Positions 15,244 through 55,896 of a DNA stretch of 64,000 nt are shown in pieces. Origin of the DNA: Bdellovibrionota bacterium (GTDB lineage: Bacteria > Bdellovibrionota > UBA2428); NCBI GenBank assembly GCA_044347615.1, contig JBIKUK010000001.1, forward strand, positions 299,863 through 363,862, given 5' to 3'. The position numbers were made by a program, and so were the translations under genes. The notes beneath the pieces were generated by a model. That model was given only the letters and a program-made list of their open reading frames with translations. It searched no databases and was not told the origin of the DNA. Within the stretch, counting starts at the first letter, position 1. The number at the start of each line of letters is the position of its first letter.

Positions 15244-16149
15244 GTGCAAAATCTTTTAGAAAGTTTTCTAGATTATTTGGCTCATGAACAGAGAGTGTCG
15301 CCTCTTACGATTGAAGCGTATAAGAACGATCTTTTGTTTTGGCAGAAAACACTTTCTTCATTAACGGTAGAAAACCCTACTCCCCAAACATCGAGTGACT
15401 TCTTAAAAGCTTTAGAAAATTTAAAAAATCAAAAATACAAGGAAAGCACTCAACATCGAAAAAGAGCTGTACTGAGAAGTTTTTTACGCTTTCGATCTTA
15501 TCAACGTGATTCATGGGCAAGCTATGTGAATCTGATTCCTCTTTCAAATCATGAGGAGCTTTTGCCGAAAGCTTTATCCGTTAAGGAAGTTTCCGTTCTT
15601 TTAGAAACAATTGAAAATTCAAATGATACAAGATCAGAAAGAGACGCGGCTTTTGTAAATCTTTTGTATTCATCGGGGCTTCGTGTATCGGAGGCGCTTA
15701 ATTTGGAATGGACGCATTTGGATGAACAAAGACAAGTGCTTAGGGTCCTGGGCAAGGGCGCAAAAGAACGTTTGGTGCCTTACTCAGAAAGAAGCGCAAG
15801 AGCTCTCGATAAATACAAAAAAAATTCATGGCAAAAATGGAGCTGTGGAAAACTAAAGGAAAAGTCAAAAACGCGGGCGATTTTTATTTCAGCTCGCTCA
15901 AAGAATCTAACTCGAATGGGGGCATGGAAGGCCCTTTCTTTTTGGAGTCAGATGGCAGGACTGGAGCATGTTCATCCACACGTTTTAAGGCATTCCTTTG
16001 CCACGCATTTGCTGGGTGGCGGAGCGGATGTTCGTGTTGTTCAGTGTTTGTTGGGGCATTCGTCGATTAATACGACGGAACGTTATTTAAAGATTGAAGA
16101 CGAGGATGTTCAGCGCTTATTCAGGGACTACCATCCCTTAGCGGAATAG
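15244..16149 (+). CDS. tyrosine recombinase, XerC/XerD family
   Basis: 301 aa, GTG start; C-terminal catalytic region HPHVLRHSFATHLL...LLGHSSINTTERYLKI with the conserved R..H..R..Y residues of tyrosine recombinases. Confidence 0.85.
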   Translation: MQNLLESFLDYLAHEQRVSPLTIEAYKNDLLFWQKTLSSLTVENPTPQTSSDFLKALENLKNQKYKESTQHRKRAVLRSFLRFRSYQRDSWASYVNLIPLSNHEELLPKALSVKEVSVLLETIENSNDTRSERDAAFVNLLYSSGLRVSEALNLEWTHLDEQRQVLRVLGKGAKERLVPYSERSARALDKYKKNSWQKWSCGKLKEKSKTRAIFISARSKNLTRMGAWKALSFWSQMAGLEHVHPHVLRHSFATHLLGGGADVRVVQCLLGHSSINTTERYLKIEDEDVQRLFRDYHPLAE

Positions 16150-24248: not shown

Positions 24249-24635
24249 TTAGTGCGAGGGAACTTGTCCGGGAGCGTTGATCACGCCCATAGAGCCTGCA
24301 CTCATGACTTGTCTTTGATATAAGTTTTTAAAGTTTGCACAGCTCATATCTTCTTTTTCTTTTCCTTCAAGAATCAAAGCAGCGCATCGACAATTAATAA
24401 TAGAGGCTTCGTTAGAAGCATTTTCTCCGATAAAAGGTGCGGGGCTACCATAAGAGGGAGCTCCTCCATAACCGTACATAGGTTGAAATTGAGGTTGAGC
24501 AAGTCCCTGTCCATAGAAGGCAGGCATACCTTGAGGGAATCCACCGTATGACTGGGCATGGCTTATATTTGAAATACAAAAACCAAAAATTCCGAATATT
24601 GTTAATAAAAATCGAGAAGAGGTTAAATTTTGCAT
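24249..24635 (-). CDS. small secreted protein, Gly/Tyr/Pro/Gln-rich
   Basis: 128 aa; N-terminal signal peptide (LLTIFGIFGFCISNISHAQ) then low-complexity GGFPQGMPAFYGQG...YGYGGAPSYG segment and a Cys-containing C-terminus. Confidence 0.5.
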   Translation of the reverse strand: MQNLTSSRFLLTIFGIFGFCISNISHAQSYGGFPQGMPAFYGQGLAQPQFQPMYGYGGAPSYGSPAPFIGENASNEASIINCRCAALILEGKEKEDMSCANFKNLYQRQVMSAGSMGVINAPGQVPSH

Positions 24636-24707: not shown

Positions 24708-24808
24708 TCAAAGTGTCTAATGTTTGGACAATTGTTAAGAGCGACTTAATTTTTTTTTGACACTTTATGAAGAAGCTTTCTCGTTAAACTCGAAGCATGG
24801 AGCGGAAG

Positions 24809-26419
24809 ATGGCAAAGCACGCTGCTTTTAAAGCATTTCTTTTAACTTTATTCGTGGGAACCTTTCAAAAGACTCATGCAGGAGTCAACGTGAACAATGG
24901 TAATTTTTATATTACCTATACGGATTTTGCGATTTTTACTCCTGGTTTACCCATTGAGGTCTCTCGAACTTACAATAGCCGCTCAAGTTATATCGCTGGA
25001 AAGTTTGGAGTGGGTTGGTCAAGCGAGCTTGATTCTTACTTGAAATTTGAAAACAAAGATGTTGTTTATTTCGAGGGTGGTGGGGGAAATGTTCTTCGTT
25101 TTACTCCAAAGAATGAAAGCCTTTGGGAAAATAATCAGCTAGGAACTCAAAACGTTAAAAAAGTTATTAAAGATAAGGTTACCTCTTTTCAGCTGCAAAC
25201 AAATGTTGGAAAATCTTATACTTTTAACTCTTCAGGGCAGTTGATTAAAATTCAAGATGGAAACAAAAACTATATTGAACTTTCTTATGAAAAAAGCGCT
25301 TTTTCAAAAATTAAAGACAATTTTAATAACCAAGTTATTGTAAGTGTTGAAGATGTCGCTGGCTTTGTTCGCGTGAAGTCTCTTAAGTCAGGAGATAGAA
25401 AAGCTAGCTACGAGTATAACAAGAATGGAGACATGATCACGGCTGTGACCATGGATGGTGCCCGTTATGTTTATAGCTACGACGATCAGCACAACATGAC
25501 AAAAGTTTCTTATTCTAATGGAACAAGCAAGACAATGGAGTACAACAAAGTTCGTGATTGGATCACAGCTTTCAAGGATATAGACGGATCATCAATTAAG
25601 TACGATTACTTCACGGATACTCTTGATCCAGAAAATCGTTTCGGAACAATTGTTTCACGAAAAGATAGCACAGGAAAAGAAGAGGTTGCGCGTTATTGGT
25701 ATGAGTTTCGTAAGCGTAAAGACCTTTCTCGTTACGCTTATCGAACGGTATCATCCTTTAATGATCAAGCGACGGAGACATTGTTAACGGAATGTTGTGG
25801 AACTCCAATTACAATCACTCAGTGGAGCATTTCAGAAGTTAGTAACCCTACAAAAAACTTAGCTTGGACGCAGCCTGTTGGAAAAAAATCTTCCACAAGC
25901 TTTGAGTATTACGCTGATGGAACATTGAAAAGAAAAACTCTTTCTAATGGATCAGTAATCAGTTTGGCCTATGATTCTTCTAACAAGAAAATTACCAAGC
26001 TTGAAAAAGATGGTAATAAAATTGAGTATTCATATGATGGAAGACAGAATCTAGCATCTGCAAAAGATCATTCTGAAAAACTAAAAATGGATTTTACGTA
26101 TGATGTTCAAGGAAGAATTACAATTGTAAAAGAAACTCCATTGAAAGGTGCTTCTGGTGAGAGAAGCTTGTACTTTAAGTACAATTCAGATGGGTTGCCA
26201 GTTGAAGTTAAAGAGAGAAACTACGATGGCAAAGTCGCACTTATTAAAATGACTTATTTTCCAAATGGTCAAATTAAAGAGGTTTTAAATTCTAGTGGGC
26301 GTACAATTGCTTCACAGGGTGATCTCAATGTGACTCAAAGAATTTATTCAACCTTTCAACGAGTGCTTGAGGTTATTCAGCCTACAGGAGTGAGTCTCAA
26401 TGCGGAAGGAACCATTTAA
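24809..26419 (+). CDS. secreted YD-repeat (Rhs-family repeat) protein, short form without recognisable toxin domain
   Basis: Signal peptide MAKHAAFKAFLLTLFVGTFQKTHAG (second ATG at 24809 has GGAG upstream; track start is 24797); repeated YD units (YEYNKNGDMITAV, YVYSYDDQHNMTKV, IEYSYDGRQN, FTYDVQGRITIV, LYFKYNSDGLPVEV). Confidence 0.7.
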   Translation: MAKHAAFKAFLLTLFVGTFQKTHAGVNVNNGNFYITYTDFAIFTPGLPIEVSRTYNSRSSYIAGKFGVGWSSELDSYLKFENKDVVYFEGGGGNVLRFTPKNESLWENNQLGTQNVKKVIKDKVTSFQLQTNVGKSYTFNSSGQLIKIQDGNKNYIELSYEKSAFSKIKDNFNNQVIVSVEDVAGFVRVKSLKSGDRKASYEYNKNGDMITAVTMDGARYVYSYDDQHNMTKVSYSNGTSKTMEYNKVRDWITAFKDIDGSSIKYDYFTDTLDPENRFGTIVSRKDSTGKEEVARYWYEFRKRKDLSRYAYRTVSSFNDQATETLLTECCGTPITITQWSISEVSNPTKNLAWTQPVGKKSSTSFEYYADGTLKRKTLSNGSVISLAYDSSNKKITKLEKDGNKIEYSYDGRQNLASAKDHSEKLKMDFTYDVQGRITIVKETPLKGASGERSLYFKYNSDGLPVEVKERNYDGKVALIKMTYFPNGQIKEVLNSSGRTIASQGDLNVTQRIYSTFQRVLEVIQPTGVSLNAEGTI

Positions 26420-26423
26420 TTTT

Positions 26424-26726
26424 ATGAAAAAAACATTTTCTTTAGTTCTTGGGTTCTCTTTTTTCGTTTTTTCTAATTTTGCTCAAGCACAATTTGGACA
26501 ACCGCCTATGTTCATGGATGCTCAAGCTTCCCAAATGCAAATGGGACAAATGCAAATGATGGGGCAGGGAGGAATGCCTCCGGGTTTTGTAGGACAAGTT
26601 CCAGGTAGTTATAACGATGCTCAATGTTTGAATGCAGCTATGATGATGCCTCAGGCTCCCTTGACCCCAGCTTACTATAATCAACAACAGCAGCAGCTTA
26701 TGAATGGACACCAGCAGGGTTTTTAA
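26424..26726 (+). CDS. small secreted protein, Gln/Met/Gly/Pro-rich
   Basis: ATG at 26424 gives MKKTFSLVLGFSFFVFSNFAQAQ signal peptide, then MQMGQMQMMGQGGMPPGF...NQQQQQLMNGHQQGF; the track start at 26400 overlaps the upstream gene. Confidence 0.5.
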   Translation: MKKTFSLVLGFSFFVFSNFAQAQFGQPPMFMDAQASQMQMGQMQMMGQGGMPPGFVGQVPGSYNDAQCLNAAMMMPQAPLTPAYYNQQQQQLMNGHQQGF

Positions 26727-27586
26727 ACTTCGATTTGAACCATTTTATTAATCAAGAAAAGTCCAATTGCTACTAGAGTAAGTGCGATTAAAATAATGAT
26801 AAACCCGGGAATGGTTGTGAAAAGCGGTCGTGTAAGTTCAGGATCAATCGCATACATCATGCCCGCTACGCCAAACGGAACGCAGCCAACAATAATGCCT
26901 GCTGTGCGACCTTGAGCAGTGAGAGCATTAATTTTATTTTGAAGCTTTGAGCGTTCTCGAATCGTTTTGACGATTGTATCGAAAGTTTCGGCCATGTTAC
27001 CGCCGGTTTCACGCAAGATATTTACACTAGTTGCAAAAATGTAGATTTCTTCAGTCTTGATTCTTTTTGCTAAGTTTTCAAAACCTGCTTCAAGAGGAAC
27101 CCCGATTCTGTTTTGATCTAGAACAAGTCCAAATTCTTGACTTACAGGTGCGGGCATTTCATCAACAACAATCTGCAGTGTTTGAGGAACGTTTAGGCCA
27201 GAACGTAAGCCGTTCGCCATCAAGGTCAGTGCGTCGATCATTTGTGCCGTAAATTCTGTAACTCGTTTTTTTCTAATAATCGATGATGCATATATTTTGG
27301 GTAGGCGCATCCCCCAGAAAAAAAGAAAGACCCCAAAAATAATTCCTAGTGTTTTGTTGGGAAAAATAAAAATTACAAAGAGAGTTGTACTAAATCCCCA
27401 AATAAGAATTTCTTTGAGAACTTCCTTTTCTGTTTTAAGTTTGAAAATATCTTCATATTCAGTTTTAAGCTCATCCCGATTTTTTAAAATTTTTTTGTTC
27501 CAAACAAAATCTTCCCAAAAGCTATAAGGAAGGTAGGCAGCTAAGAAAAAACAAATCCCTGCGCCAATGATGACAAGAATATTCAT
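26723..27586 (-). CDS. Flp pilus assembly inner-membrane platform protein (TadB/TadC family)
   Basis: 287 aa polytopic membrane protein with a central cytoplasmic domain, adjacent to the CpaF gene in the Tad locus. Confidence 0.75.
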   Translation of the reverse strand: MNILVIIGAGICFFLAAYLPYSFWEDFVWNKKILKNRDELKTEYEDIFKLKTEKEVLKEILIWGFSTTLFVIFIFPNKTLGIIFGVFLFFWGMRLPKIYASSIIRKKRVTEFTAQMIDALTLMANGLRSGLNVPQTLQIVVDEMPAPVSQEFGLVLDQNRIGVPLEAGFENLAKRIKTEEIYIFATSVNILRETGGNMAETFDTIVKTIRERSKLQNKINALTAQGRTAGIIVGCVPFGVAGMMYAIDPELTRPLFTTIPGFIIILIALTLVAIGLFLINKMVQIEV

Positions 27587-27602: not shown

Positions 27603-29774
27603 TTAAGCCGCCTTGAAAAGACCTCGAGGAATCTTGATCCCGTGAGATTCTATTTTTTCTACGAATTTGGGAATGAATCCTGTCGCAACGTGTTTTCCTA
27701 TGACTTTTCTATCTTTGTCTTGTCCAGTTTGTTTGAATAGAAAGATATCTTGAGTTGTTATGACTTCACCTTGCATACCGCATACTTCTGTTATGTGAGT
27801 GATTTTTCTAGATCCATCTGAAAGACGTGATTGCTGAACAATTAAGTGAACAGCGCTGGAAATTTGTTCTCGAATAGCTTTTGCAGGTAAATCCATTCCT
27901 GCCATTAAGACAAGTGTTTCGATACGTGTGAGGGCATCGCGAGGGTTGTTGGCGTGAACTGTCGCCATAGAACCATCGTGACCTGTATTCATCGCTTGTA
28001 GCATGTCGAGGGCCTCTCCTCCCCGGACCTCACCGACGATGATCCGATCGGGTTTCATTCGAAGAGTTTGTTTGACAAGGTCACGAATAGTAATTGCTCC
28101 CGTACCTTCTATGTTTGCAGGACGAGTTTCAAGGCGACCAACGTGTTCTTGAACGAGAGAAAGTTCAGCAGCGTCTTCAACGGTGAGAATACGTTCTGTT
28201 GAGGGAATGAAGCTACTCAATATATTGAGACAAGTTGTTTTACCGGAGCCCGTGCCTCCTGAAATCACCACGTTCAGTCGAGCTTCGATACATGTTCGTA
28301 AAAAATCAGAAATTTCTGGGGTAATAGAACCAAATTTAATTAAATCTTCTGGGCCTAGTCTTTTTTCAGGAAATTTACGTATTGTGATCATTGGTCCATC
28401 GATCGCAAGAGGAGGAATGATTGCGTGAACACGGCTACCGTCTGCAAGTCGAGCGTCAACATAGGGTGTTTTTTCGTCGATTCTTCTTCCAAGTGGATTA
28501 ACAATTCTCTCGATAGCTGCCATGACTTGTACATTGCTTGAAAAAACCACAGGACTTTTCATGTTTTTCCCGCCTTTTTCAAGGTAAATAAGATCAGCGC
28601 GATTGACCATGATTTCACTAACTGTTCGATCTGCAATCAGATCTTCTAAGGGGCCAAGTCCGAGAGCCTCATCAAGAACTTCTTTTACGAGTTTTGAGCT
28701 ATCTTCACGACTCTTCCAGGGATGATCTTCTTTACCAACAATTTCCGTAATAATTTTCATCGCCTTATCTCGAAGCTCCATTTTTTTGGCTTCGTCTAAC
28801 TGGCGGTTAAGTTGTTCCTTTTTTAAATCCATTTTTTCTACAAGTTGTTCATGAATTAAAAGTTTGAAACGACTTCGAGGATCTTGCGGCTCTTTTCCAA
28901 AGCTTGATCGATTACTCGATTTTTTTGATGTGGTATTTTCCGGTGTTTTTTCAGAAGGAGGAGGTGTGGCGGGTTTTGCTCTTTTATAGGCAGAAAGCTT
29001 TTCTAAAATTTTTCCTTCTATGAGTTGTCGACCTAGTTGAATAAGAGCTTTTGTTGTGCCCGATCCAGTTGCAAGGGTGACCATAGGTTGGCCTTTTATG
29101 AGTGCGGTTCTCGCTAGATCGGTTTCTTCGGGAATAGAGCAGACGACTTGACGCTTTAGTGTTTGTTCCAAAAAAGCTGGGTTGTAGGGATTGTTGGGAG
29201 TCATTTTGTTCAGAATGATTTTGACGAATTCTTGAGGAAATAAAAGAGTTTGAATTTTTTCTAAAACTTTTTTTGTTTGATTGAGGACAAGAATTTCGGG
29301 GTTGCTCACAACAAGAATAATTGAGGAGTGTTCAAGTATTTTGATAATACTTCCATCAATTCGAGATCCGCAATCTACGACGGTGATGGGAAATGAACTT
29401 TTGATTGATCGCATGGCGCCGTCCATTTTTTCATCAGTGACATCAATAAGTCTTTCAAGGTTCTGAAGAAGTTGAAGAGAGTGGAGTTGGCTCGAAGCTC
29501 CGCCTAAATTGACTTGAGTCATTATTTTTTTGAGCGAGTCGCCACTTCTTATTTTTCCTTCTATCAGATCATTTCCAAATCCTTTGATTTCTTTATTTCC
29601 AAAAATAAGATTCAAGTCACCAGATCCTTGCATATCAGCATCGATTACGGCGACAGGGATTTTTCGATCAAGGCAAATAGAGAGAGCAAAGTTTCCCGCA
29701 AAAACAGACTTTCCAACTCCGCCTTTACCTCCAACGACTGCAATGATGTGTCCTGAGTTTAGGGGTGCGTTCAT
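27603..29774 (-). CDS. fused CpaE/TadZ-like ParA-type domain + CpaF/TadA secretion ATPase
   Basis: 723 aa; N-terminal deviant Walker [15 protein letters not shown] (ParA/MinD/CpaE-like), Pro/Ser/Thr-rich linker, then CpaF-type ATPase with Walker [14 protein letters not shown] and downstream TVEDAAEL...[11 protein letters not shown] motifs. Confidence 0.85.
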
Positions 29775-29775
29775 T

Positions 29776-31524
29776 TTATCTCCTCAGCCTAAATTTACGT
29801 TTTAAGCTTTCTGTTCCCGCTCCGGGAGTTTGAATAGTTGTGGGCGTGACAAAGATAATCATTTGATTTTTTGTGTCTTGAAGTTCATGATTTTTTGAAA
29901 ATTTAAAAAGAGAAATATCATTTGTTGTGGAATTTGGAGGATCTCTTCCTAGTGATACTTGTCTTCGCTCCGAGATAAGGCCTCCTATAGCGGCGCTTTC
30001 TTCATTTGAAACAACAAGTTGAGTTTTGATAGCATACTCTAGGCTACCTGGGGGGGCGTCGGGGGCGGGTTTGTCTTGAATTTCTGCTTGAGTAGCGTTG
30101 ATACTGATTAGAATTTTATCTGTCGTTCTAATGGAGACTGCGGCAAGAGATATATTTGTTTTAATATCTGCAAAAGCCCATGAAGGAGGATTGTTTGCGT
30201 TTCCTGGAATAAAATAGGGAACTTTTAAAACTTCAGCAATTGTAGATTCAGGACCTGGGTTACCGTCTGCTCCATCTTTCACGATAAGCGTCGCAGATTT
30301 TAAAACTCGAGCGTGACCATTTCTGGAGAGTGTTTCAAGAGTGGGAAAGAAACCGCTTAACGTCGCTTGAAACGAGCCAATAAATTTACTGATATCACTG
30401 GAGTAGCTGTAACTTGAATTTGTTGTAATACCTGGGGCCCATTTAAAATTGAAGGCTTTTATGTAGTTACGTACCAGACTGACAAAGTCTACTCGAATGC
30501 TCAAGTCTTTTTCAGGTTCTCCAGCTTGAGCGGGTCTTATACGAACACGAAGCATACACTCGGGCAGGTCTTTAAAGATAGATTCTTTTACGAGTTTGGA
30601 TTCAAGCTTGAATTGATCTTGAATCATAGCTTGGCAAGTTTGAACTGCTACGTCGCGTTCAATTTTTTTATCGACAGCACCTTCCAAAATAAATCGACCA
30701 TTTAGGACTCGAACATAAATATTTGTAGGTTTATCTCTGCCACCGTTAATTTCATCCTGCATTTTTTCTGCTATGTACTGCAAGGCGAGAGGTGAAACTT
30801 CGGCGAGGAGTTCAATAGGTTTTCCTGCAGTTTTATACCCATCATAAACAGTCATGACACGTCTAAGGTCTTTGGGCACAACAATTTGTCCGTCAATAAC
30901 AATGCGATCGCCAATGAGGCGCATTTCAAGACCTTCAATTTTTCCCATTTTTGCTTTTATTTGCTGTAAGAGAACAATCAGATCTTCGTCTGTGACGGTT
31001 ACACGAAAAACTTTAAAAAGCTTTTTCCCGGGAAGCGCTTTTTTGCTTTCGGGGTCAGTTATTTTGTCGTAGGCAAGTATTTGAGTGGTCATAGTTTGCC
31101 CAGTCGTAACAATAGTTGCCCTTTTGGGGGGAAAGCCAGGTTGAAGCATACTCTCTCTATCAAATTTTACAATTCCAGGAATTGTGATTCCCCAGTAAAC
31201 GTCTTTCACGTCTTTTATTTCTGGAACGTCTTCAAGAGAAATAGTGGTGCCTGTTTTTGCATTTGGATTTTTTTTGTTGAGCCCTATGTAAACTTCTTCA
31301 AAGCCATAAATAGGATTTAGTTGATCTCGATTTTTTAGAATTGTTTCTAAATCTGAATCTGCTATTTCGCCTACGAGTTGGGTTTTAGGAATGGTGCTTT
31401 CATTGGCTACAGAGTTTTCTTGGGTAAAGGATGTCTTTGAAGTAAAAACTAAAAGAAATAAAAAAAAGGTTTTTATTAGTTGATGTTTATTCAAAGACGC
31501 CTCCTCCGGATTCAAGTGGGTCAC
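29776..31524 (-). CDS. Flp pilus secretin (CpaC/RcpA family)
   Basis: 582 aa; C-terminal secretin-type region (AAIGGLISERRQ...MIIFVTPTTI); more likely start is TTG at about 31494 (GGAGG upstream, MNKHQLIKTFFLFLLVF signal peptide) rather than the track GTG at 31524. Confidence 0.8.
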   Translation of the reverse strand: MTHLNPEEASLNKHQLIKTFFLFLLVFTSKTSFTQENSVANESTIPKTQLVGEIADSDLETILKNRDQLNPIYGFEEVYIGLNKKNPNAKTGTTISLEDVPEIKDVKDVYWGITIPGIVKFDRESMLQPGFPPKRATIVTTGQTMTTQILAYDKITDPESKKALPGKKLFKVFRVTVTDEDLIVLLQQIKAKMGKIEGLEMRLIGDRIVIDGQIVVPKDLRRVMTVYDGYKTAGKPIELLAEVSPLALQYIAEKMQDEINGGRDKPTNIYVRVLNGRFILEGAVDKKIERDVAVQTCQAMIQDQFKLESKLVKESIFKDLPECMLRVRIRPAQAGEPEKDLSIRVDFVSLVRNYIKAFNFKWAPGITTNSSYSYSSDISKFIGSFQATLSGFFPTLETLSRNGHARVLKSATLIVKDGADGNPGPESTIAEVLKVPYFIPGNANNPPSWAFADIKTNISLAAVSIRTTDKILISINATQAEIQDKPAPDAPPGSLEYAIKTQLVVSNEESAAIGGLISERRQVSLGRDPPNSTTNDISLFKFSKNHELQDTKNQMIIFVTPTTIQTPGAGTESLKRKFRLRR

Positions 31525-32431
31525 TTGCAGGTTTTCTTACGGGGGCAGCGCCCTCAGCTGTGTTGTTCTTAGCAGCGGCGGCAGCAGCAGCGGCAGCTGC
31601 GGCTTGTCGCGCTTCTTCAATTATTCTTTTTTGCTCTCGATCTCGAGCTTCCGCTCGTTTCGAGTCGGGCCCAAGAACTTCATCAAGAGTTGTTGATCCT
31701 ATGTTTGTTTCGGCGCGATCGATGGGGTTTCTCAGTGTAAGGTAAAGATCGGTGCCTTGGGCGAGTGCGTAAATTAAAATTTGAGATTGTTCTGGCGTTA
31801 CTTCTACGGTGACTGTGTTGAAGTTTTTTTCCCCTCTCGCGCTTACTGCTATTTTTCTTTGATTGAGTGGATCGTTTTCATAACGCGTGGGAATGTTATT
31901 CTGGATAATTTCTCCAGCAGCTAAAATCGTAATATTTTGTAAAAGTGTTTTGAGTTCAGTTTGTTTTGATCCATCTGGGTTTGGGTAGCTAACGCTTCCA
32001 ATAATATCCACATGGTCACCAGGCTTAATAAGTTTAGAGACACCTGTATTATCATTTACAGGAATAGACATGGCTCTTTTTGAAGCAGAAACTTGGACCG
32101 CAAGACCTGTCTCAGCGCTTTTGGGTGAGAGTTTTGTCAAAAGTATTTGCTCACCTTCTTTAATGGGTACAAGAGCTACCATGTCTTTAATATCTTTAAA
32201 GTCGCTAAGGGCTCCTGGCTGAATAAATTTGTCGAACTGACTTTCTTGAGTCACCATCGTTTCATCAAGGACTTGCATTTCATTAATATTTCTTGAGGCA
32301 ATCAAAACGGTTGAAGGCTTGCCAAATTTTTCTTTGCTTTCTTGGTCTTGGCTGTATACGTAAAGACCAACAAGAGCCATGCCTAGTAAAGCAAAAGCAA
32401 AACTTACAAAAAAAGCACGCGACTGGTTCAA
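31487..32431 (-). CDS. Flp pilus assembly protein CpaB/RcpC, with C-terminal poly-Ala tract
   Basis: 314 aa; N-terminal membrane anchor, SAF-like region, position between tadE-like genes and the secretin; poly-Ala run near the C-terminus. Confidence 0.75.
   Translation of the reverse strand: MNQSRAFFVSFAFALLGMALVGLYVYSQDQESKEKFGKPSTVLIASRNINEMQVLDETMVTQESQFDKFIQPGALSDFKDIKDMVALVPIKEGEQILLTKLSPKSAETGLAVQVSASKRAMSIPVNDNTGVSKLIKPGDHVDIIGSVSYPNPDGSKQTELKTLLQNITILAAGEIIQNNIPTRYENDPLNQRKIAVSARGEKNFNTVTVEVTPEQSQILIYALAQGTDLYLTLRNPIDRAETNIGSTTLDEVLGPDSKRAEARDREQKRIIEEARQAAAAAAAAAAAKNNTAEGAAPVRKPASDPLESGGGVFE
31572..31603 (-). repeat. (GCN)n trinucleotide tract encoding 11 consecutive Ala in CpaB
   Basis: gcagcggcggcagcagcagcggcagctgcggc on the plus strand; a GC-rich simple repeat inside an otherwise AT-rich gene. 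Confidence 0.6.
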
Positions 32432-32489: not shown

Positions 32490-32915
32490 TTACTCACAAG
32501 CATCTATGCTTCCGGGACGTCTAAAAACTGTCATTTTATGAATTCGTTGAAGGCCCATATCAACGCCAAGAATACTTGGTAATTTGAATAAGTTGGGTCC
32601 GTCGGTTGAAAGTTGGGGTGTAGCAGAAAAACATGTTTTAGAATTGTCCACGATAATATTTTGAGATCCAGACATAGGAAATTCATAAAGATTTTGAGCT
32701 CCAGATCTATTTGCTCTAGAGACAAGAGGGCCAGAATTAGAGATTTTTGCAAAAGCTGCGTTGCGGGCTGCTTCTTGAAGAAGCGTCGATTCTCGAAGTC
32801 CTATAAAGAAAACAGTACTTACAATTAGAATGACAATAAATAGCAAGACTGCTGGGAGAAACTCAATCATGGCCTGGCCTTTATTGTTTTTGAAACGACT
32901 AATTTTTTTTAACAT
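32490..32915 (-). CDS. TadE/TadG-like pseudopilin
   Basis: 141 aa; N-terminal GQAMIEFLPAVLLFIVIL motif (G-x4-E-F/Y prepilin-like processing site plus hydrophobic helix). Confidence 0.65.
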   Translation of the reverse strand: MLKKISRFKNNKGQAMIEFLPAVLLFIVILIVSTVFFIGLRESTLLQEAARNAAFAKISNSGPLVSRANRSGAQNLYEFPMSGSQNIIVDNSKTCFSATPQLSTDGPNLFKLPSILGVDMGLQRIHKMTVFRRPGSIDACE

Positions 32916-33481
32916 CCATTATCCTCCATGCCTTCCCAGCTATGAAGTGAGTTTCCGCCTCTGAAAAATTTAGAAAAAAATTCTTGAAAAAAAACTTGGC
33001 ATTCTTTTTTAGTTGGCTCACGTCCAAGATTACTTTGAGTAGAAAGATTGAGCGTACCAAATGTTTTTTTTAAATCTTGACCAAGAGGAACCGTTATCAA
33101 GGGCACTTCAAATTCTAAGCGAAAAGGGGTTCTAACGTTACCCGAATTTACGGAGGGAGTGCTAAAATTAGTAATGGTTGCAAGTTTTCTTTTTGAGGAA
33201 AAACCAAAAGGAGTTGAGCCTGATCCAGGGCTTACGTTTGGAACGTAAATTTTCATGGTTCTCGTTGCAGCCTCAAGCTGGGAATTGGGATCGTCCCGGC
33301 TTGCTTGATAAGCACGAGCCGACATAAAAGTTGCGTAACTTAAATATTGGTAAACTGCAAAAGAAACAACAGCATTGTAACTTAAAGAAAGAAAAAAAAT
33401 AAAAGCAATAAAAACAAATATGAATTCGACTGTGCCTTGTCCCTCTTTTTTATGAAATTTAACTTTCATAATTTTTTTCAT
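32909..33481 (-). CDS. TadE/TadF-like pseudopilin
   Basis: 190 aa; N-terminal GQGTVEFIFVFIAFIFFL motif; start overlaps the flp1 stop. Confidence 0.65.
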   Translation of the reverse strand: MKKIMKVKFHKKEGQGTVEFIFVFIAFIFFLSLSYNAVVSFAVYQYLSYATFMSARAYQASRDDPNSQLEAATRTMKIYVPNVSPGSGSTPFGFSSKRKLATITNFSTPSVNSGNVRTPFRLEFEVPLITVPLGQDLKKTFGTLNLSTQSNLGREPTKKECQVFFQEFFSKFFRGGNSLHSWEGMEDNGC

Positions 33482-33696
33482 TTAGTTTTGAACTCCATCT
33501 TGTTGTAGTAGGCCTCTGCGGGTTTTCCAGCGGTGGCGGAATCTTTTTCGACCTTGTCTTTGAAGGTTTCAAGGGGTTTTTTCATCTTTTGTTTAAGAAG
33601 TGTGTATGCGACAAGTGCCATTCCAACAATGGCTGCAATGACAAGTATATATTCCACAACAACTTGTCCTTTGCGGAGATTTTTTTTCTTTTTCAT
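33478..33696 (-). CDS. flp: Flp-family type IVb pilin (copy 1)
   Basis: 72 aa; KG-QVVVEYILVIAAIVGMALVA: Flp prepilin motif G/xxxxEY followed by a hydrophobic helix. Confidence 0.75.
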   Translation of the reverse strand: MKKKKNLRKGQVVVEYILVIAAIVGMALVAYTLLKQKMKKPLETFKDKVEKDSATAGKPAEAYYNKMEFKTK

Positions 33697-33714
33697 AAAA
33701 TAAAATTTAGTCGC

Positions 33715-33897
33715 TTATTTGCACTCACTGTTTTTATTATTAGAAGAAATACAATCAGTTGTTTTTGTTTTTAACCTACTCATGGAATCTCGAAAAACAT
33801 CATTAACTATGAATTTTACAACAACCACAGTTGTTACCGCTACCAGTAAAGATAGAAGTATGTATTCGACAAGCACTTGACCGTTTTTAAATTTCAT
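33715..33897 (-). CDS. flp: Flp-family type IVb pilin (copy 2)
   Basis: 60 aa; NG-QVLVEYILLSLLVAVTTVVV. Confidence 0.7.
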   Translation of the reverse strand: MKFKNGQVLVEYILLSLLVAVTTVVVVKFIVNDVFRDSMSRLKTKTTDCISSNNKNSECK

Positions 33898-33929
33898 AGC
33901 TCACATCCTATTTAGCTAAGATTTTAGTT

Positions 33930-34109
33930 TATTTGTCTGAGGAAAGCGTGCCTACACTACCATCAACACTTTTGAAGACGCTATCAACAGTTCCGCCGAT
34001 TTTACCTTTTATCGTTTTACCGAAAATCATGACGAAGCCAACCATGACAGCGAGGATGAGAATCCACTCTAATGTACCTTGACCGCTTTTTTTTGAGTTG
34101 TTTTTCATT
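33930..34109 (-). CDS. Flp-like pilin (copy 3), 59 aa, not in the ORF track
   Basis: Own translation: MKNNSKKSGQGTLEWILILAVMVGFVMIFGKTIKGKIGGTVDSVFKSVDGSVGTLSSDK; AGGAG 7 nt upstream of the ATG at 34109; G-x4-E-W variant of the Flp motif. Confidence 0.6.
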
Positions 34110-34177: not shown

Positions 34178-34942
34178 TTAAGAAGCACGTTTTTGAATAG
34201 TTTTTGACTTTTTAGTGATTTCGGTTTCAGAGGATGTGCTTTCAGAAAAGTTTTCACCTACAAATACAACTTTAAATGTATTGATCCAAATTTTTAAATC
34301 AAGTGATAGGGAGAGGTCTCGGACGTATTTACAATCTAGGGTTGCTTTTTCATCTGGATCATTAAGATTTGTTTTTAAAGCTTGCCAATATCCAGACATT
34401 CCAGGGCGTACAGCAAATCTTTCAACATGGGATTCGGTCATGTGAAGGTTTTCTTCAATAATGTAAGGCCTTGGTCCCAAGAGAAGCATGTCTCCTTTAA
34501 CAACATTTATTAGCTGAGGAATTTCATCAATTTTCCATTTTCTAAGAAAACGACCAAGTTCTCCTTCGACTCTTGGATCATTTTCTATTTTTTTTAGAGG
34601 GGTAAATCCCATTTCTATAACTTTAGGAGATCCGGTTTTTAAAGTTCTAAATTTATAAACATAAAAAATGGTTCCATTTTTTCCAACTCGTTTTTGCTTA
34701 TGGAATACTTTACCGCCTTTGAGTGTTTTTATAAGAATTGCGATCATCCCCAAGAATGGACTTAGTAAGGTTAGTAAAAGGGTTGCGAGAAGTGTTTCAA
34801 GGATAATTTTGAATTTGTAATAAATTGGAAGTTTTTTTTGAATTGAGAATATTTTATTTTGAAATTTTATAAAATCTGAAATTGGTAGGGCAGGCACTAC
34901 TTTTTTTTCATTATCTCTTAAGAAATTGGTTTCATGGGTCAC
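34178..34942 (-). CDS. bacterial sugar transferase (polyprenyl-phosphate hexose-1-phosphate transferase, WbaP/ExoY-like)
   Basis: 254 aa; TM helix then KFRTLKTGSP...DEIPQLINVVKGDMLLLGPRP motif typical of the bacterial sugar transferase family. Confidence 0.8.
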   Translation of the reverse strand: MTHETNFLRDNEKKVVPALPISDFIKFQNKIFSIQKKLPIYYKFKIILETLLATLLLTLLSPFLGMIAILIKTLKGGKVFHKQKRVGKNGTIFYVYKFRTLKTGSPKVIEMGFTPLKKIENDPRVEGELGRFLRKWKIDEIPQLINVVKGDMLLLGPRPYIIEENLHMTESHVERFAVRPGMSGYWQALKTNLNDPDEKATLDCKYVRDLSLSLDLKIWINTFKVVFVGENFSESTSSETEITKKSKTIQKRAS

Positions 34943-35004: not shown

Positions 35005-35568
35005 TTATCTTCTCTGGTGAAAGTCCGGTTTTTTTTTGTCATGACTAAGGGCAAAAAATTTCTGTTCGTAGGGAGTGTGTAAAATGACGGTCGGTGAGAT
35101 GAAATGAGTAGATTTGAATTCAGTTTTTAAATTGAATGAAACAATGACAAGATTTTGTTCATTTTTTATTTCTAAACTTGAAACTTGAATAGGCGCCTTT
35201 AAAGAGCTTTGTTCTCTGTACTTTTTAAAGCTCATCAAATCGTACTTTCCTTCAAGTGAAACGTTTACCTCAAAGTATTGTTCTGAGTTTTCGTCAAAAA
35301 AGAAGCACTCAAAGCAAGTTCTTTTCCATAAATCCGAAGCCTTTTCTAAATCTGTAATTTTTTTTGGCATGAAAAGCTTTTGGTCAACATTTTTTTGACT
35401 AAGGATAAAGGATAGAGTCATCTCTTGATTTTCGGAGTTAGCGTTCAACTGTTCAATTATAACTTCAATAAATTTAGGGTCTTCATCTTTAAAGTTTATG
35501 AGTTTAAGAGAGCGTTTCATCTTGACTCTTTTATTCAAGCTGTCAAAAGATAGAAGTGCAATATCCAT
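35005..35568 (-). CDS. hypothetical protein
   Basis: 187-aa ORF; no recognisable motif. Confidence 0.4.
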   Translation of the reverse strand: MDIALLSFDSLNKRVKMKRSLKLINFKDEDPKFIEVIIEQLNANSENQEMTLSFILSQKNVDQKLFMPKKITDLEKASDLWKRTCFECFFFDENSEQYFEVNVSLEGKYDLMSFKKYREQSSLKAPIQVSSLEIKNEQNLVIVSFNLKTEFKSTHFISPTVILHTPYEQKFFALSHDKKKPDFHQRR

Positions 35569-36749
35569 TTGATCCTATTTCTTTGTCAGTTCTTGGGAAG
35601 TTGAGTGAGTATTCATCTTTTCAAAACGCATCTTTTTTTGAATCATTGGGAATTCCGCTTTTGGCTGAAGACGAACAAATAGAGTTTTTTTATAAGCGAG
35701 TTTTATACGTTCTTTCTTTTGTTCCTCAACCGCAGCTTGTGTTTTTATTTGTTAACGAAAAAGAAGATTCTTCTTTGCAAGTAAAAGAATCTAACAAAAG
35801 GGTCTTAGATTTTTTTTCTTTTGAAAAGCACGAAGTCCTAAAGGTTTGTTCTCATGAAAATCACCTGATTGTGATTATAAATGGCACTTTAAGTGAATGG
35901 ACATTAAAAAACAAAGAAGGTGTTGGGCGGGCCCGTCGTATACTTGGTGATATAACTTTATATTTGTATAAGCAGAAAAAGTTAAACACAGCTTTGCATC
36001 GACAAATTGATGCAGATGTTCGATTGCCCCTGGATTATTTTAAAACCCAACTCAATCAGCCTTTTGTGGCGGGGACTTATCCTTTTTTTCATTCAAGGGG
36101 GGCATTGAGTGAATATGAATTTAGGGGCCTTCAGGAATATGAGGGTTTTTTGCGGTCTTATGTGGAGGGTTTAAAATTTGCCGATTCTCCGTATGCGTTT
36201 TGGGCTCTGGGAAGTACGCTTATTTTTGATTTAAGGGCGTATGAGAAAATTCGAGGATTCCCGAACGTTCAGGCTGGAGAAGATTTTTATTTTCTAAGCA
36301 AGATACAAAGTCAGGGATTGGTCACTCAGATTGATGAAATTTCCTGCCATGCAGAGCTTGATATAAAACTTGAAATTGTAGGTAGAAAATCAACGAGAGT
36401 TCCCTTTGGTACTGGTCGTGCTTTAGAGCGATTAGAAAACGGCGGCAGATATGAAAAATATCCTCACGAAGTTTTTGAGAAACTTAAAAATGTTTTATAT
36501 GAGCTTGAGAGGCTTTCAGAACACAGAAATGTTGAAGAGTTTTTTTTACAAATTCCCGCTCATGACCATTTAAACTTGAAAGAATTAAAAAAATCTTTTA
36601 CTGGAATTTTTAAACAAAAAGCAACTTCTCGTCATTACTTGCGTCAGCTTCACCAAACTTTCGACGGCCTTCAAACTTTTCGATGGGTCAGAGAAAAAAC
36701 TTATTTTCAAAGTTTAGCTGAAAAGTCTTTAGCAAACTCAAGTGCATAA
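35556..36749 (+). CDS. hypothetical protein
   Basis: 397-aa ORF with GTG start overlapping the divergent neighbour; no confident family assignment. Confidence 0.45.
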   Translation: MQYPFDPISLSVLGKLSEYSSFQNASFFESLGIPLLAEDEQIEFFYKRVLYVLSFVPQPQLVFLFVNEKEDSSLQVKESNKRVLDFFSFEKHEVLKVCSHENHLIVIINGTLSEWTLKNKEGVGRARRILGDITLYLYKQKKLNTALHRQIDADVRLPLDYFKTQLNQPFVAGTYPFFHSRGALSEYEFRGLQEYEGFLRSYVEGLKFADSPYAFWALGSTLIFDLRAYEKIRGFPNVQAGEDFYFLSKIQSQGLVTQIDEISCHAELDIKLEIVGRKSTRVPFGTGRALERLENGGRYEKYPHEVFEKLKNVLYELERLSEHRNVEEFFLQIPAHDHLNLKELKKSFTGIFKQKATSRHYLRQLHQTFDGLQTFRWVREKTYFQSLAEKSLANSSA

Positions 36750-49130: not shown

Positions 49131-49567
49131 TTGTTCTTTTATCTTTTTTTAGTTTTTTTTCATACTCTTCACAGCCAGAGGGGCTTGTTTTGAAGCCTCC
49201 AGCAGATCCTGTGCCAAGAAGAATATTAAGAAATAAGAATATTACATTTGTCGATGAAGAGAATTTAAATAAAAAAGTTAAAGTGCAAACCAATGATAAA
49301 GTTCTCTTGCACGAAACAAAGTATAGGGTAAAGGGTAGGAGTCGACCAAGCCGAACTGGGAGTGTGGTTGCAGTTATAGATAGTGGAGAAATTGTTGAGG
49401 CGATAAAAGATTCAGAAGATGGAAGGTGGAAAGCTGTTTATTTCAAAAAAAATGACATAAAAGTTTGGGTTCCAATATCAGCTCTTTCCAAAAAAAAATC
49501 GATCAATTCAAATCAATCTTCGTCTGATTTGGATGAATTGGCTGAAGAGGAAAGCCCAGATGATTGA
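49118..49567 (+). CDS. hypothetical secreted protein with SH3b-like segment
   Basis: 149 aa; signal peptide; GSVVAVIDSGEIVEAIKDSEDGRWKAVYF resembles a bacterial SH3 core; acidic C-terminus. Confidence 0.4.
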   Translation: MPFLIVLLSFFSFFSYSSQPEGLVLKPPADPVPRRILRNKNITFVDEENLNKKVKVQTNDKVLLHETKYRVKGRSRPSRTGSVVAVIDSGEIVEAIKDSEDGRWKAVYFKKNDIKVWVPISALSKKKSINSNQSSSDLDELAEEESPDD

Positions 49568-53218: not shown

Positions 53219-54240
53219 GGATACTTCCTCCAGATACTTTGAAGAGCGAGGCCCTCAGCTATCAGGAAAAGCATCCCAACCCAAAGAAAAAAATCAGCTC
53301 CCTCGCTAGTTTTAGTCTGATTTGAAATTTCGATTTTACTTTTTTCAAGTTGGTCAATCTCGCTGAGTATTTTACCCATTAAACTTTGGTCAACAGCCGA
53401 GTATGCTTTGCCTCCCGTAAAGTTTGAGATTTTTTCGAGAAGCTCATCGTTAGCGGCATCTGTTAAATATTGTAGGACTTGTTTTTTATTACCAAATCCA
53501 TCCTCGACTGTTACAGGAAAGGGAACTCTACCTTTTTTTCCGATTCCTATAGAATAAATTTTAATTCCAAAACCAGCAGCAATTTGTGAGGCTGATATTG
53601 GATCGATTGAGCCCATGTTATTGTCTCCATCTGTAACAAGGAGAATTGTTTTAGATTTAGCCGTTGATCCTTTAAGGTGGTTAACGGCAACAGCTAGCGC
53701 TTGTCCGATAGCTGTTCCATCTTCAAGGCCTGAATTTGAACTTGATTTTAAGTTAGCTAGAAGGAGTTTGTGATCAAGAGTTAGGGGCGCGCTTAAGTAA
53801 GCTTCCCCGCTAAATAATACTAATCCCAATCGATCATCTTGCCGTAAGTTGATGAATTCTACCAATCGATCAATTGCCACGGTTCTTCTGTTAGGTGAAA
53901 AGTCTAAAGCATCCATAGACTTTGAAAGGTCAAAGGCAACGATCATATCTATTGATTCAACAATCCTTTTTTCTTTACCAAATTTTTTCTGAGGTCTTGC
54001 AAGAGCTAATATCAAAAAAGTAAGGGCAGTGAATCTCAGCGCTGCTTGAAGTTTAAATGGAGTAATCTGTTTCTGATTTTCGGTACGAGTTGACCAGTCA
54101 AAGGGGAATATGAGACGACTTCTAAAGCGGACAGAAATTTTTATGAAAAATATAAAACATAGTAAAAGGGGAATTAAGAGCAAGAATGCTTCGGGGCTAA
54201 ACCATGCGAAATTACTTAAGCTTTGACTTGAGTAGCTCAT
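53215..54240 (-). CDS. BatA-like protein: 2 TM + vWA domain
   Basis: 341 aa; vWA motifs (IVAFDLSKSMDA...LLVTDGDNN) after two N-terminal TM helices. Confidence 0.75.
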   Translation of the reverse strand: MSYSSQSLSNFAWFSPEAFLLLIPLLLCFIFFIKISVRFRSRLIFPFDWSTRTENQKQITPFKLQAALRFTALTFLILALARPQKKFGKEKRIVESIDMIVAFDLSKSMDALDFSPNRRTVAIDRLVEFINLRQDDRLGLVLFSGEAYLSAPLTLDHKLLLANLKSSSNSGLEDGTAIGQALAVAVNHLKGSTAKSKTILLVTDGDNNMGSIDPISASQIAAGFGIKIYSIGIGKKGRVPFPVTVEDGFGNKKQVLQYLTDAANDELLEKISNFTGGKAYSAVDQSLMGKILSEIDQLEKSKIEISNQTKTSEGADFFLWVGMLFLIAEGLALQSIWRKYP

Positions 54241-55022: not shown

Positions 55023-55023
55023 A

Positions 55024-55884: not shown

Positions 55885-55896
55885 GTGTTTAACTCC

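Follow-up and report, generated by a model that had tools for sequence, protein, structure and literature searches.

A gene for a single polypeptide that joins a ParA/MinD-type domain to the CpaF/TadA motor of a Tad pilus system raises the question of whether such a fusion is real, from which parts it was made and how it would work. The gene lies in a 64,000-nucleotide stretch of DNA (referred to here as the window) from a member of the Bdellovibrionota, and was singled out in an original prediction made from the sequence. As predicted, a ParA domain and a complete CpaF/TadA ATPase, recognised by Pfam and by their motifs, reside in one intact 723-aa ORF, and the tadZA fusion is real, shared among predatory Bdellovibrionota as a conserved trait, ordinary for that phylum and of low novelty.

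The tadZA gene and its Tad locus

The tadZA ORF runs on the minus strand from an ATG located 1 nt past the rcpA stop, with a GAGGAG Shine-Dalgarno sequence 6-7 nt 5' of this ATG, to a stop codon at 27603-27605. A plus-strand reading of the same interval was rejected, as it is riddled with stops. The features of the gene are as follows.

27603..29774, minus strand: tadZA, encoding the TadZ-linker-TadA fusion (723-aa ORF, Pfam domains, homologues)
28989..29750, minus strand: TadZ-like ParA/MinD-fold domain, aa 9-262 (Pfam, AF2, Foldseek, nearest relatives)
29706..29732, minus strand: deviant Walker A GGKGGVGKS, aa 15-23, with signature Lys17 and P-loop Lys22 (motif position, homologue conservation)
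29628..29648, minus strand: switch I-like VIDADMQ, aa 43-49, with D45 and D47 invariant (homologue conservation)
29364..29381, minus strand: Walker B-like VVDCGS, aa 132-137, with D134 and G136 invariant (homologue conservation)
28884..28988, minus strand: Pro/Ser/Thr/Lys-rich disordered linker, aa 263-297 (AF2 pLDDT, family alignment, CpaF alignment)
28677..28883, minus strand: CpaF NTD1-like three-helix region, aa 298-366 (AF2 helices, CpaF alignment)
27606..28676, minus strand: CpaF/TadA NTD2 and catalytic CTD, aa 367-723 (T2SSE, CpaF match)
28233-28259, minus strand: C-terminal Walker A GGTGSGKTT, aa 506-514 (motif position, homologue conservation)

The GGKGGVGKS and GGTGSGKTT motifs were thus found where they had been claimed, at aa 15-23 and aa 506-514, and the linker described as Pro/Ser/Thr-rich contains 6 P, 6 S, 4 T and 6 K in the 35 residues of aa 263-297. 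The domain search proposed for the CbiA/ParA and T2SSE profiles returned matches to CbiA, AAA_31, ParA and T2SSE.

That a sequencing or assembly error merged two genes, tadZ and tadA, by removing a stop or a change of frame between them has next to no chance of being the explanation. Split calls do exist in two close relatives (P0097/L083 and P0071/L084), but independent samples (Logan SRR10955143, JGI 3300033980 and JGI/NCBI 3300059473) yielded contigs with the identical 723-aa protein, more than 100 homologues of 52-95% identity are full-length fusions, and the frameshifts belong to the split relatives rather than to the fused gene. The independent assemblies and full-length fused homologues exclude the missed stop or frameshift against which the original prediction had warned. 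These homologues have a common architecture and belong to the Bdellovibrionota or Bdellovibrionales where named, and both domain sets, in a length of 704-755 aa, are present in about 115 of the top 120 database homologues. One apparent split lies in GCA_041391385.1 (JAWKOD010000003.1, about nt 414,600-415,700) and may be an assembly error or a recent fission. Split relative L084 carries three separate 1-nt insertions. The linker of L083 is longer by a net 10 nt, one of its changes being a 2-nt deletion, and a conserved 10-residue motif is still encoded 5' of the called start of L083 in a shifted frame. That start corresponds to internal Met315, before which no Shine-Dalgarno-like sequence was seen when the sequence was read by eye, and no support for a second, TadA-only product was found in the sequence.

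The Tad operon of the window has the order flp (three genes), tadE, tadF, rcpC, rcpA, tadZA, tadB.

33478-33696, 33715-33897 and 33929-34108, minus strand: three Flp-type pilin genes (G/QxxxE[YW] motifs; weak Flp1_like and Class_IIIsignal matches)
32909-33481 and 32490-32915 (together 32490..33481), minus strand: two TadE/TadF-like pseudopilin genes (G/QxxxEF prepilin motifs, homologues in related loci)
31487..32431, minus strand: rcpC/cpaB (RcpC; TIGR03177 pilus_cpaB, 147.7 bits against a cutoff of 71)
29776..31524, minus strand: rcpA/cpaC secretin gene, directly upstream of tadZA (Pfam Secretin, synteny)
26723..27586, minus strand: tadB, the sole platform gene with a T2SSF domain, 16 nt past the end of tadZA (Pfam T2SSF, 65 bits; synteny)

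The TadE/TadF-like genes have no Pfam match. Among the window's other ORFs of at least 90 aa, no tadC or tadV was present, nor was any further T2SSF domain, peptidase A24 or second ParA domain; the absence of a separate cpaE, as originally noted, is borne out by the lack of any other ParA/MinD-like gene in this set. A gene with RHS repeats (Bd0109-like) adjoins tadB, and the RHS/small-protein pair is inverted so that it converges on tadB. Comparison with orthologous loci, which had been recommended, found the same fusion and the synteny tadE-rcpC-rcpA-tadZA-tadB(-RHS) in the window, in Bdellovibrio sp. HCB288 and in other Bdellovibrionota loci.

Identity of the N-terminal ParA/MinD domain

The N-terminal domain matches Pfam CbiA (45.8 bits, cutoff 25.4), AAA_31 and ParA over aa 9-223, and was modelled by AF2 with a pLDDT of 85-93 in the full-length protein and of 91.6 (pTM 0.91) when taken alone. 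The best Foldseek match of this domain is PDB 3EA0, a ParA-family ATPase of Chlorobium tepidum (TM 0.80/0.87), followed by MinD, FlhG and FleN, with the 3EA0 and MinD matches at probability 1.00 and TM 0.74-0.87. The 3EA0 protein is also the best solved-structure match by sequence (E 1.4e-17) and, again like the N-domain, comprises a ParA domain of stand-alone size and no receiver domain, but it is a free protein of 245 aa, is only 22% identical, and has a TadZ-type Walker A, KGGDGGS, without the P-loop Lys. A literature search pairing TadZ with 3EA0 found nothing. Neither phmmer (E<=10) nor the 50 best Foldseek matches of the N-domain included the E. rectale TadZ. The ParA domain starts at aa 9, leaving no room for a receiver-like domain (ARD) before it, and none is present; this absence of the canonical receiver-like domain from the TadZ part had been overlooked earlier. 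An amphipathic C-terminal helix for membrane association is reported for CpaE. In the window protein no amphipathic membrane-targeting helix was obvious in a crude scan, in which no 14-residue segment of aa 225-300 combined a high moment with high hydrophobicity (maximum muH 0.58).

The nucleotide-binding motifs of this domain are strictly kept. In 42 homologues G15, K17, G18, G19, G21 and K22 are invariant, as are D45, D47 and D134, despite a mean N-domain identity of 47% across the family (77% for the motor). The Walker A of the window protein, KGGVGKS, fits the TadZ consensus K/RGGxGx[S/T] but retains the P-loop Lys, which is invariant throughout the fused clade. Among free TadZs, about half of the loci have this second Lys, and the others carry T, C, R, A or V there. 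Because both lysines of the canonical deviant motif are present, which is not so in many free TadZs, the N-domain may resemble MinD/ParA in its behaviour and truly hydrolyse ATP rather than have the low activity of TadZ. ATP binding with low hydrolysis has been reported for canonical TadZ (PMC6668835), and this, together with an N-domain that evolves much faster than the motor, would be consistent with a degenerate, nucleotide-independent tether that provides a protein-binding surface only. Such a tether is highly improbable in view of the full deviant Walker A, switch I Asp and Walker B Asp, all invariant in 42 sequences, and of a motif retention stricter than in the free TadZs. The invariant lysines and aspartates predict a nucleotide-dependent role.

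The relatives of the domain were sought in a search of 1.8 billion proteins, from which the best 150 50%-cluster representatives were taken. Of these, 73 are 360-480 aa in length with a ParA part that begins at aa 110 or later, and 21 are MinD-length proteins; of the 73, five of six tested had the Response_reg plus CbiA architecture of CpaE/TadZ. Canonical TadZ/CpaE (A. actinomycetemcomitans, C. crescentus, E. rectale) thus has the architecture of the nearest non-fused relatives, and its gene likewise codes for a ParA/MinD-fold ATPase and directly precedes tadA/cpaF; the window protein differs from canonical TadZ/CpaE in keeping a P-loop Lys that many canonical members have lost, in being tethered 1:1 and in having no receiver-like domain. 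Gene position was compared with 53 sampled loci from other phyla in which a TadZ-type ParA domain occupies its own ORF. A separate cpaF ORF lies downstream in all 53, in most of them directly, only tens of bases away, and nearly all of the free ORFs have the start of their ParA part at ~aa 130-200. As the free tadZ ORFs likewise precede cpaF in these loci, the fused ParA domain occupies the tadZ slot.

This placement bears on whether the domain was instead recruited from MinD or another ParA-like gene, which would make any TadZ-like function one of analogy only. The scores against NCBIfam models, all below their cutoffs, lean in that direction, with 70.9 bits for minD_arch (cutoff 201.75) and 50.6 for minD_bact (cutoff 212.9) against 41.1 for the actinobacterial CpaE/Ssd model, as do the MinD-like canonical KGGxGK[ST] Walker A, the near equality of the MinD, FlhG and FleN fold matches to that of 3EA0, and the missing receiver-like domain. 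Recruitment from MinD is nevertheless improbable: the domain sits between rcpA and tadA, exactly the place of tadZ in other phyla, its nearest non-fused relatives are mostly receiver-plus-ParA proteins of ~400 aa (73 against 21 of the best 150), neither minC nor minE was found nearby in the window, and its scores are far under the MinD equivalog cutoffs, which places it outside the MinD families as those models define them. A profile built from the fused N-domains ranked all 42 free TadZs of the profile set above MinD. In the reciprocal comparison a free-TadZ profile scored 3EA0 at 174 bits, the window N-domain at 143 and MinD at 125, so that profile scores give a modest discrimination between TadZ and archaeal-type MinD (143 against 125 bits). 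Gene position and the architectures of the relatives together indicate that TadZ/CpaE, rather than MinD, ParA or FlhG, are the closest relatives of the N-domain.

The linker and the CpaF/TadA motor

The AF2 pLDDT falls below 50 at aa 267-292 of the linker, and the full-length model shows no fixed inter-domain orientation (pTM 0.42). Across the family the linker has a mean identity of 19% and a length of 23-49 aa. In CpaF a disordered NTD0 and a three-helix NTD1 have been defined (PMC11300603); aa 281-714 of the window protein align to CpaF residues 63-490, and AF2 helices in the NTD1-like region are found at 299-315, 328-348 and 356-371. The concern that the N-terminal domain might be the normal N-terminus of CpaF is thereby ruled out, as the CpaF NTD0 and NTD1 sit downstream of it, at aa ~281-366. 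By alignment and model, the linker appears to correspond to CpaF's own disordered NTD0, and fusion would therefore have needed only the loss of a stop codon.

The C-terminal part matches Pfam T2SSE (PF00437) at aa 371-648 with 201.6 bits (E 1.9e-59, cutoff 24.9), and when specificity was compared against PilB, PilT, GspE and VirB11, the solved CpaF structures (9e24/8rkd) matched at E ~1e-128 with the next family at 6e-36. Its Walker A, Asp box/Walker B and His box (aa 597-609) are all conserved, with key residues invariant in 42 homologues; the motif TVEDAAEL is at aa 531-538, and a further 10-residue motif is at aa 576-585. The part shares with the CpaF of Caulobacter crescentus (9e24, 8rkd) a disordered NTD0, a three-helix NTD1, NTD2, CTD and the catalytic motifs. 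It differs in that the Caulobacter N-terminus is free and its NTD0 dispensable, whereas the NTD0-like segment of the window protein tethers a ParA domain of 260 aa.

TadZA across lineages and its proposed mechanism

The novelty that the original prediction implied does not hold, since an "atypical TadZA fusion ATPase" of tad locus 1 of B. bacteriovorus HD100 has already been described with functional data (10.64898/2026.07.08.737194). The B. bacteriovorus TadZA is essential and has no receiver-like domain, its TadZ domain plus linker binds the polarity hub RomR, and its polar localisation is RomR-dependent; TadC is encoded elsewhere, and there is no TadV in the locus (10.64898/2026.07.08.737194). 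The same preprint cites an earlier mention of the fusion (10.64898/2026.07.08.737194), and a CpaE domain on the CpaF of Peredibacter starrii is pointed out in a genome paper of 2026 (PMC13147790). The window gene is an orthologue of B. bacteriovorus TadZA, and its interpretation is only partly new; what is added here is the monophyly of the fused clade, the invariance of both Walker A lysines, the apparent identity of the linker with NTD0, and the occurrence of similar fusions in other phyla. The earlier mention cited by the TadZA preprint, its reference 13, may be Perez-Cheeks 2012.

The window protein has the same receiver-free order as the B. bacteriovorus TadZA, namely TadZ without a receiver-like domain, a flexible linker and a C-terminal TadA. 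The locus likewise agrees with B. bacteriovorus locus 1 in its rcpC-rcpA-tadZA-tadB order, in the absence of tadC and tadV, and in the Bd0109-like RHS-repeat gene (RHS/hit-locus) by tadB, although the RHS/small-protein pair has the opposite orientation in the window. The window protein groups with the TadZA of the genus Bdellovibrio in a fused clade that is monophyletic in both halves, with 100% bootstrap in the C-domain NJ tree and 97% in the N-domain NJ tree, the latter having a single MinD outgroup that cannot alone separate a TadZ from a MinD origin. The window differs in representing an uncultured lineage of ~39-41% G+C, and its protein is 47% identical to that of Bdellovibrio sp. HCB288 overall, with only ~25-29% in the N-domain. 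As the N-domain is only 25-29% identical to the Bdellovibrio-genus proteins, conservation of the RomR interface is not to be assumed; no romR is present in the 64-kb window, and the linker, at 19% identity, is poorly conserved.

Taken as a whole, the gene is very probably a TadZA orthologue carried by an uncultured Bdellovibrionota lineage from freshwater, with the origin and mechanism that follow. The fusion most likely arose when the stop between adjacent tadZ (cpaE) and tadA (cpaF) genes was lost; the N-terminal receiver-like domain of TadZ would have been lost alongside, and the disordered N-terminus of TadA would have been turned into the linker. By homology, the CpaF/TadA part is expected to be a hexameric motor that drives Flp pilin polymerisation, and probably retraction, via the TadB/TadC platform. 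To each protomer of the motor a single ParA/MinD-type domain would be tethered, its deviant Walker A, switch I and Walker B all intact, and from these invariant motifs the domain is expected to bind ATP and to form nucleotide-sandwich dimers. By analogy with RomR in B. bacteriovorus, the TadZ domain and linker may serve as an adaptor between the motor and a cell-pole landmark. The fixed stoichiometry previously claimed follows logically from the fusion as a 1:1 ratio of TadZ to TadA, and the covalent link would replace the receiver-domain-mediated ring of free TadZ/CpaE dimers found in Caulobacter. In that organism 12 CpaE and 6 CpaF were fitted in situ, as six CpaE dimers around a CpaF hexamer (PMC13170226), in contrast to the 1:1 of TadZA. 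For the window TadZA we infer ATP binding, dimerisation, hexamer formation and localisation alike.

In a different but unlikely reading, the chief task of the N-domain would be to regulate the motor as a switch and not to position it, with ATP-dependent ParA dimers, three per hexamer or between hexamers, gating assembly, platform engagement or extension/retraction. The invariance of the catalytic and dimerisation residues despite fast overall divergence would suit such a switch, as would the 1:1 tether to each protomer by a flexible linker of 23-49 aa; in B. bacteriovorus, TadZA does not stay at a pole but shows highly dynamic behaviour between the two (10.64898/2026.07.08.737194), and CpaF, as a single bidirectional motor, needs some control (PMC11300603). 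Against this, AF2 shows no defined interface between N-domain and motor (pTM 0.42), and in B. bacteriovorus TadZ plus linker binds RomR, with a RomR-dependent localisation bias. The switch and positioning roles are not mutually exclusive.

Taken by itself, the TadZA orthologue carries little weight: it shows that the B. bacteriovorus architecture reaches an uncultured freshwater lineage far removed from that species, whose Tad genes are dispersed in the same way. Of more use to researchers of the Tad machine are the comparisons that came with it. The 1:1 ratio narrows the ways in which TadZ can be placed on the motor in structural models, and similar TadZ-TadA fusions were found in MAGs of Omnitrophota, WOR-3 and Eremiobacterota, plus an unclassified lineage; those of the three named groups are natural replicates for asking why two ATPases fuse. 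Independent fusion origins are suggested, but no more than that, because the backbone of the CpaF tree is poorly supported (17%). It is a tentative possibility that the fusion is recurrent and convergent in the Bdellovibrionota, Omnitrophota, WOR-3, the unclassified lineage and Eremiobacterota, with the Bdellovibrionota clade marked by receiver loss and strict Walker A retention. If so, the functional unit would comprise one ATP-dependent ParA domain for each motor protomer, or three dimers in a hexamer; the ring of 12 CpaE copies in Caulobacter would be a derived elaboration, and any enrichment of the fusion in predatory or host-dependent lineages might be adaptive. The FHA-TadA fusions of Myxococcota (Citreicoccus locus L035) similarly place an N-terminal accessory domain on a TadA motor in a predatory lineage, but there the accessory domain is FHA (phosphopeptide binding) and not ParA/MinD. 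A 1260-aa ORF of Eremiobacterota seems to unite TadZ with both TadA and TadB.

The tadZA gene and its operon

The fusion gene tadZA lies within a Tad/Flp pilus operon on the minus strand:

Genes of the Tad/Flp pilus operon in the window
33478-34108, minus strand: three Flp-type pilin genes
32490-33481, minus strand: two TadE/F-like pseudopilin genes
31487-32431, minus strand: rcpC/cpaB
29776-31524, minus strand: rcpA/cpaC secretin
27603-29774, minus strand: tadZA
26723-27586, minus strand: tadB, a single T2SSF platform gene

The tadZA ORF encodes 723 aa from an ATG that is preceded by a GAGGAG Shine-Dalgarno sequence and located 1 nt past the stop codon of the secretin gene upstream; the plus-strand translation of this interval contains stops throughout. 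The two motifs quoted in the original prediction were found, GGKGGVGKS (aa 15-23) and GGTGSGKTT (aa 506-514), as was the predicted Pro/Ser/Thr-rich linker, a 35-residue segment (aa 263-297) also rich in Lys. Pfam searches placed both domain sets in the one ORF, all above gathering scores: CbiA, AAA_31 and ParA at aa 9-223, and T2SSE at aa 371-648. In NCBIfam, the N-terminal part best matches models of MinD, CpaE homologues and ParA, and the C-terminal part those of TadA-family, VirB11 and TrbB proteins. Residues 281-714 align to residues 63-490 of the solved Caulobacter CpaF (E ~1e-128), and the C-terminal part is shown by sequence homology to be a CpaF-type motor. In an AlphaFold2 model built from an alignment of 42 sequences, the N-domain is confident (pLDDT 85-93) and the linker (aa 267-292) falls below 50, after which come helices and the CpaF fold; the orientation of the two halves to each other is not fixed (pTM 0.42). 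Pfam searches of most other window ORFs of at least 90 aa, including all large ones, identified housekeeping genes and a Bat/MoxR operon, and detected no second ParA-like gene, second T2SSF gene (tadC) or prepilin peptidase; the predicted absence of a separate cpaE holds within the 64 kb window.

A sequencing or assembly artefact is ruled out as the source of the fusion, since contigs of independent origin, in both sample and assembler, encode the identical protein, and ~115 of the 120 best database homologues are 704-755 aa long with both domain sets, at identities down to 52%. Two close relatives (88-90% identity over the motor part) have been called as two genes each, one ParA-like and one CpaF:

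Split relatives of tadZA
L083:3052-5230 (GCA_041391385.1, JAWKOD010000003.1): separate ParA-like and CpaF genes
L084:3125-5299 (ENA ERZ25039498 contig_80430): separate ParA-like and CpaF genes

Compared to the window gene, L084 carries three 1-nt insertions at separate sites. In L083 the linker has a net gain of 10 nt, including a 2-nt deletion, and the conserved [10 protein letters not shown] motif is encoded upstream of the called start in a shifted frame. Because of these frameshifts both loci are called as split genes; either the assemblies contain errors, or a gene that was fused in the ancestor has been frameshifted very recently.

Identity and conservation of the N-terminal domain

The N-terminus of CpaF comprises NTD0, disordered and dispensable (residues 1-79), and the three-helix NTD1 (80-149) (PMC11300603). 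Both align to TadZA aa ~281-366, downstream of the ParA-like domain, which rules out the N-domain being the normal CpaF N-terminus and upholds its original assignment as ParA-like; the linker thus corresponds to CpaF's own disordered N-terminus.

Three lines of evidence (position, nearest relatives and profiles) tie the N-domain to TadZ/CpaE rather than to MinD. A survey with each species represented by a single genome gave a set of 80 loci. Of these, 53 have a TadZ-type ParA domain in an ORF of its own (Firmicutes, Chloroflexota, Acidobacteriota, Actinomycetota, Nitrospirota and others), and in all 53 a separate cpaF ORF is located downstream of it, in most of them directly, with a gap of tens of bases; the fused N-domain occupies exactly this slot. 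Modelled alone (pLDDT 91.6, pTM 0.91), its best match in both structure and sequence is PDB 3EA0 (TM 0.80/0.87, E 1.4e-17), a Chlorobium ParA-family ATPase with a TadZ-type Walker A (KGGDGGS), followed by MinD, FlhG and FleN. When 1.84 billion cluster representatives were searched with the N-domain only, 73 of the best 150 matches were 360-480 aa long with the ParA part starting at aa 110 or later, 13 were of fused length and only 21 of MinD length; five of six tested ~400-aa relatives had the Response_reg plus CbiA architecture of CpaE/TadZ. All 42 free TadZs in the set outscored Pyrococcus MinD against a fused-N-domain profile, and a free-TadZ profile scored the window N-domain at 143 bits versus 125 for MinD, so that the profile preference for TadZ is modest. 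In nearly all 53 loci the ParA part of the free TadZ begins at about aa 130-200, behind a receiver-like domain; the TadZA N-domain starts at aa 9 and lacks the atypical receiver domain (ARD) that defines canonical TadZ/CpaE.

Across the 42-sequence fused family, mean identity to the window protein is 47% in the N-domain, 19% in the linker (23-49 aa in length), 57% in NTD1 and 77% in the motor. Walker A residues G15, K17, G18, G19, G21 and K22, switch I D45 and D47, and Walker B D134 and G136 are invariant, and the deviant Walker A is complete, including the signature and P-loop lysines. In contrast, free TadZs of other phyla have the P-loop lysine in only about half of loci, with T, C, R, A or V elsewhere. 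Invariant nucleotide-site residues despite this divergence argue that the tethered N-domain is a working nucleotide switch and not a relic. No convincing amphipathic membrane-targeting helix was found at the end of the N-domain.

The TadZA family and its proposed mechanism

The novelty implied by the original prediction, in which TadZ and TadA are separate in described Tad loci, does not hold: the fusion is real and was correctly read, and it is typical of the phylum and already described. TadZA was published from tad locus 1 of B. bacteriovorus HD100 by Tesseur, Denise, Santin and Laloux in July 2026 (bioRxiv 10.64898/2026.07.08.737194), who also cite an earlier mention of the fusion. [quoted passage not shown] Likewise, neither tadC nor TadV was found among the window ORFs searched. 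The gene order tadE-rcpC-rcpA-tadZA-tadB-RHS is common to the window, Bdellovibrio sp. HCB288 and other Bdellovibrionota loci, and all Bdellovibrionota-type fused proteins are monophyletic in trees of the N-domain (97%) and C-domain (100%); both results support the window gene being an orthologue within this family. The window protein is a distant member: its identity to the Bdellovibrio-genus protein is 47% overall and about 25-29% when the N-domain is taken alone.

The predicted fixed ratio of positioning factor to motor stands, as the fusion sets TadZ:TadA at 1:1; a hexamer then has six ParA domains, enough for no more than three sandwich dimers. By comparison, in the in situ model of Caulobacter the CpaF hexamer is surrounded by six CpaE dimers (12 copies), which are joined via their receiver domains (PMC13170226). 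The C-terminal part of TadZA would hexamerise and, acting through TadB and TadC, power the polymerisation and retraction of Flp, and each protomer would carry one tethered ParA/MinD domain that, judging from its invariant motifs, should bind ATP and be able to dimerise. By analogy with B. bacteriovorus, the TadZ domain and linker may couple the motor to a polar landmark, with the covalent tether, together with a receiver-like partner outside the protein, plausibly standing in for the lost ARD. The N-domain could also be regulatory, its dimerisation gating motor assembly or direction, which is compatible with positioning.

Similar fusions and neighbouring genes

What keeps TadZA of interest is that the fusion may recur in other phyla. 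Single-frame ParA(CbiA)-T2SSE fusions of ~720 aa, without a receiver domain, were found outside Bdellovibrionota:

ParA(CbiA)-T2SSE fusions outside Bdellovibrionota
L015:2362-4542: Candidatus Omnitrophota MAG
L039:7995-10154: Candidatus Omnitrophota MAG
L007:4011-6173: unclassified bacterium

In neighbour-joining trees of both halves, whose backbone lacks resolution, these form clades apart from the Bdellovibrionota fusions, and independent origins are plausible. A 1260-aa ORF in a Candidatus Eremiobacteraeota MAG (L018:7125-10907) contains CbiA (aa ~316-503 of the stop-free frame), T2SSE and T2SSF in one frame, followed by a 287-aa ORF, and would be a TadZ-TadA-TadB triple fusion. An 842-aa frame in a WOR-3 MAG (L067:1942-4467) has T2SSE and a weak N-terminal CbiA match. 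The TadA homologue of Citreicoccus inhibens (Myxococcota; L035:7362-9284) carries an N-terminal FHA domain and no ParA domain, and among the other proteobacterial and myxococcal CpaFs sampled, several have an unexplained extension of 150-250 aa at the N-terminus.

Adjoining tadB in the window is a 540-aa RHS/YD-repeat protein gene (DUF6531 plus RHS_repeat; 24797-26419, plus strand), overlapped by a gene for a 108-aa Gln/Met-rich protein with an apparent N-terminal signal sequence (26400-26726, plus strand). This pair resembles Bd0109/Bd0108 of the B. bacteriovorus "hit locus", which are co-transcribed with tad genes (PMC3818213). The RHS gene and tadZA share a strand in the other Bdellovibrionota loci; in the window the pair is inverted and convergent on tadB. 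Beside the RHS gene is an ORF without a Pfam match (24249-24635, minus strand), which encodes a Gly/Pro/Gln-rich protein of 128 aa whose N-terminus is hydrophobic; ORFs of 187 and 397 aa flanking the tad operon also lack Pfam matches (the no-match ORFs include 35005-36749). The gene immediately upstream of the three flp genes, also on the minus strand (34178-34942), encodes a Bac_transf sugar transferase of the initiating glycosyl-phosphate transferase family, which might be linked to pilin or envelope glycosylation. Near housekeeping genes are a 653-aa PF10136 "site-specific recombinase" family protein (9375-11336, minus strand) and a XerC/D-type tyrosine recombinase (15244-16149, plus strand). 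The Bat/MoxR-type operon (49513-56886, minus strand) encodes an AAA_3 MoxR ATPase, DUF58, two VWA proteins, a VWA-TPR protein and BatD, and is unrelated to the TadZA finding.
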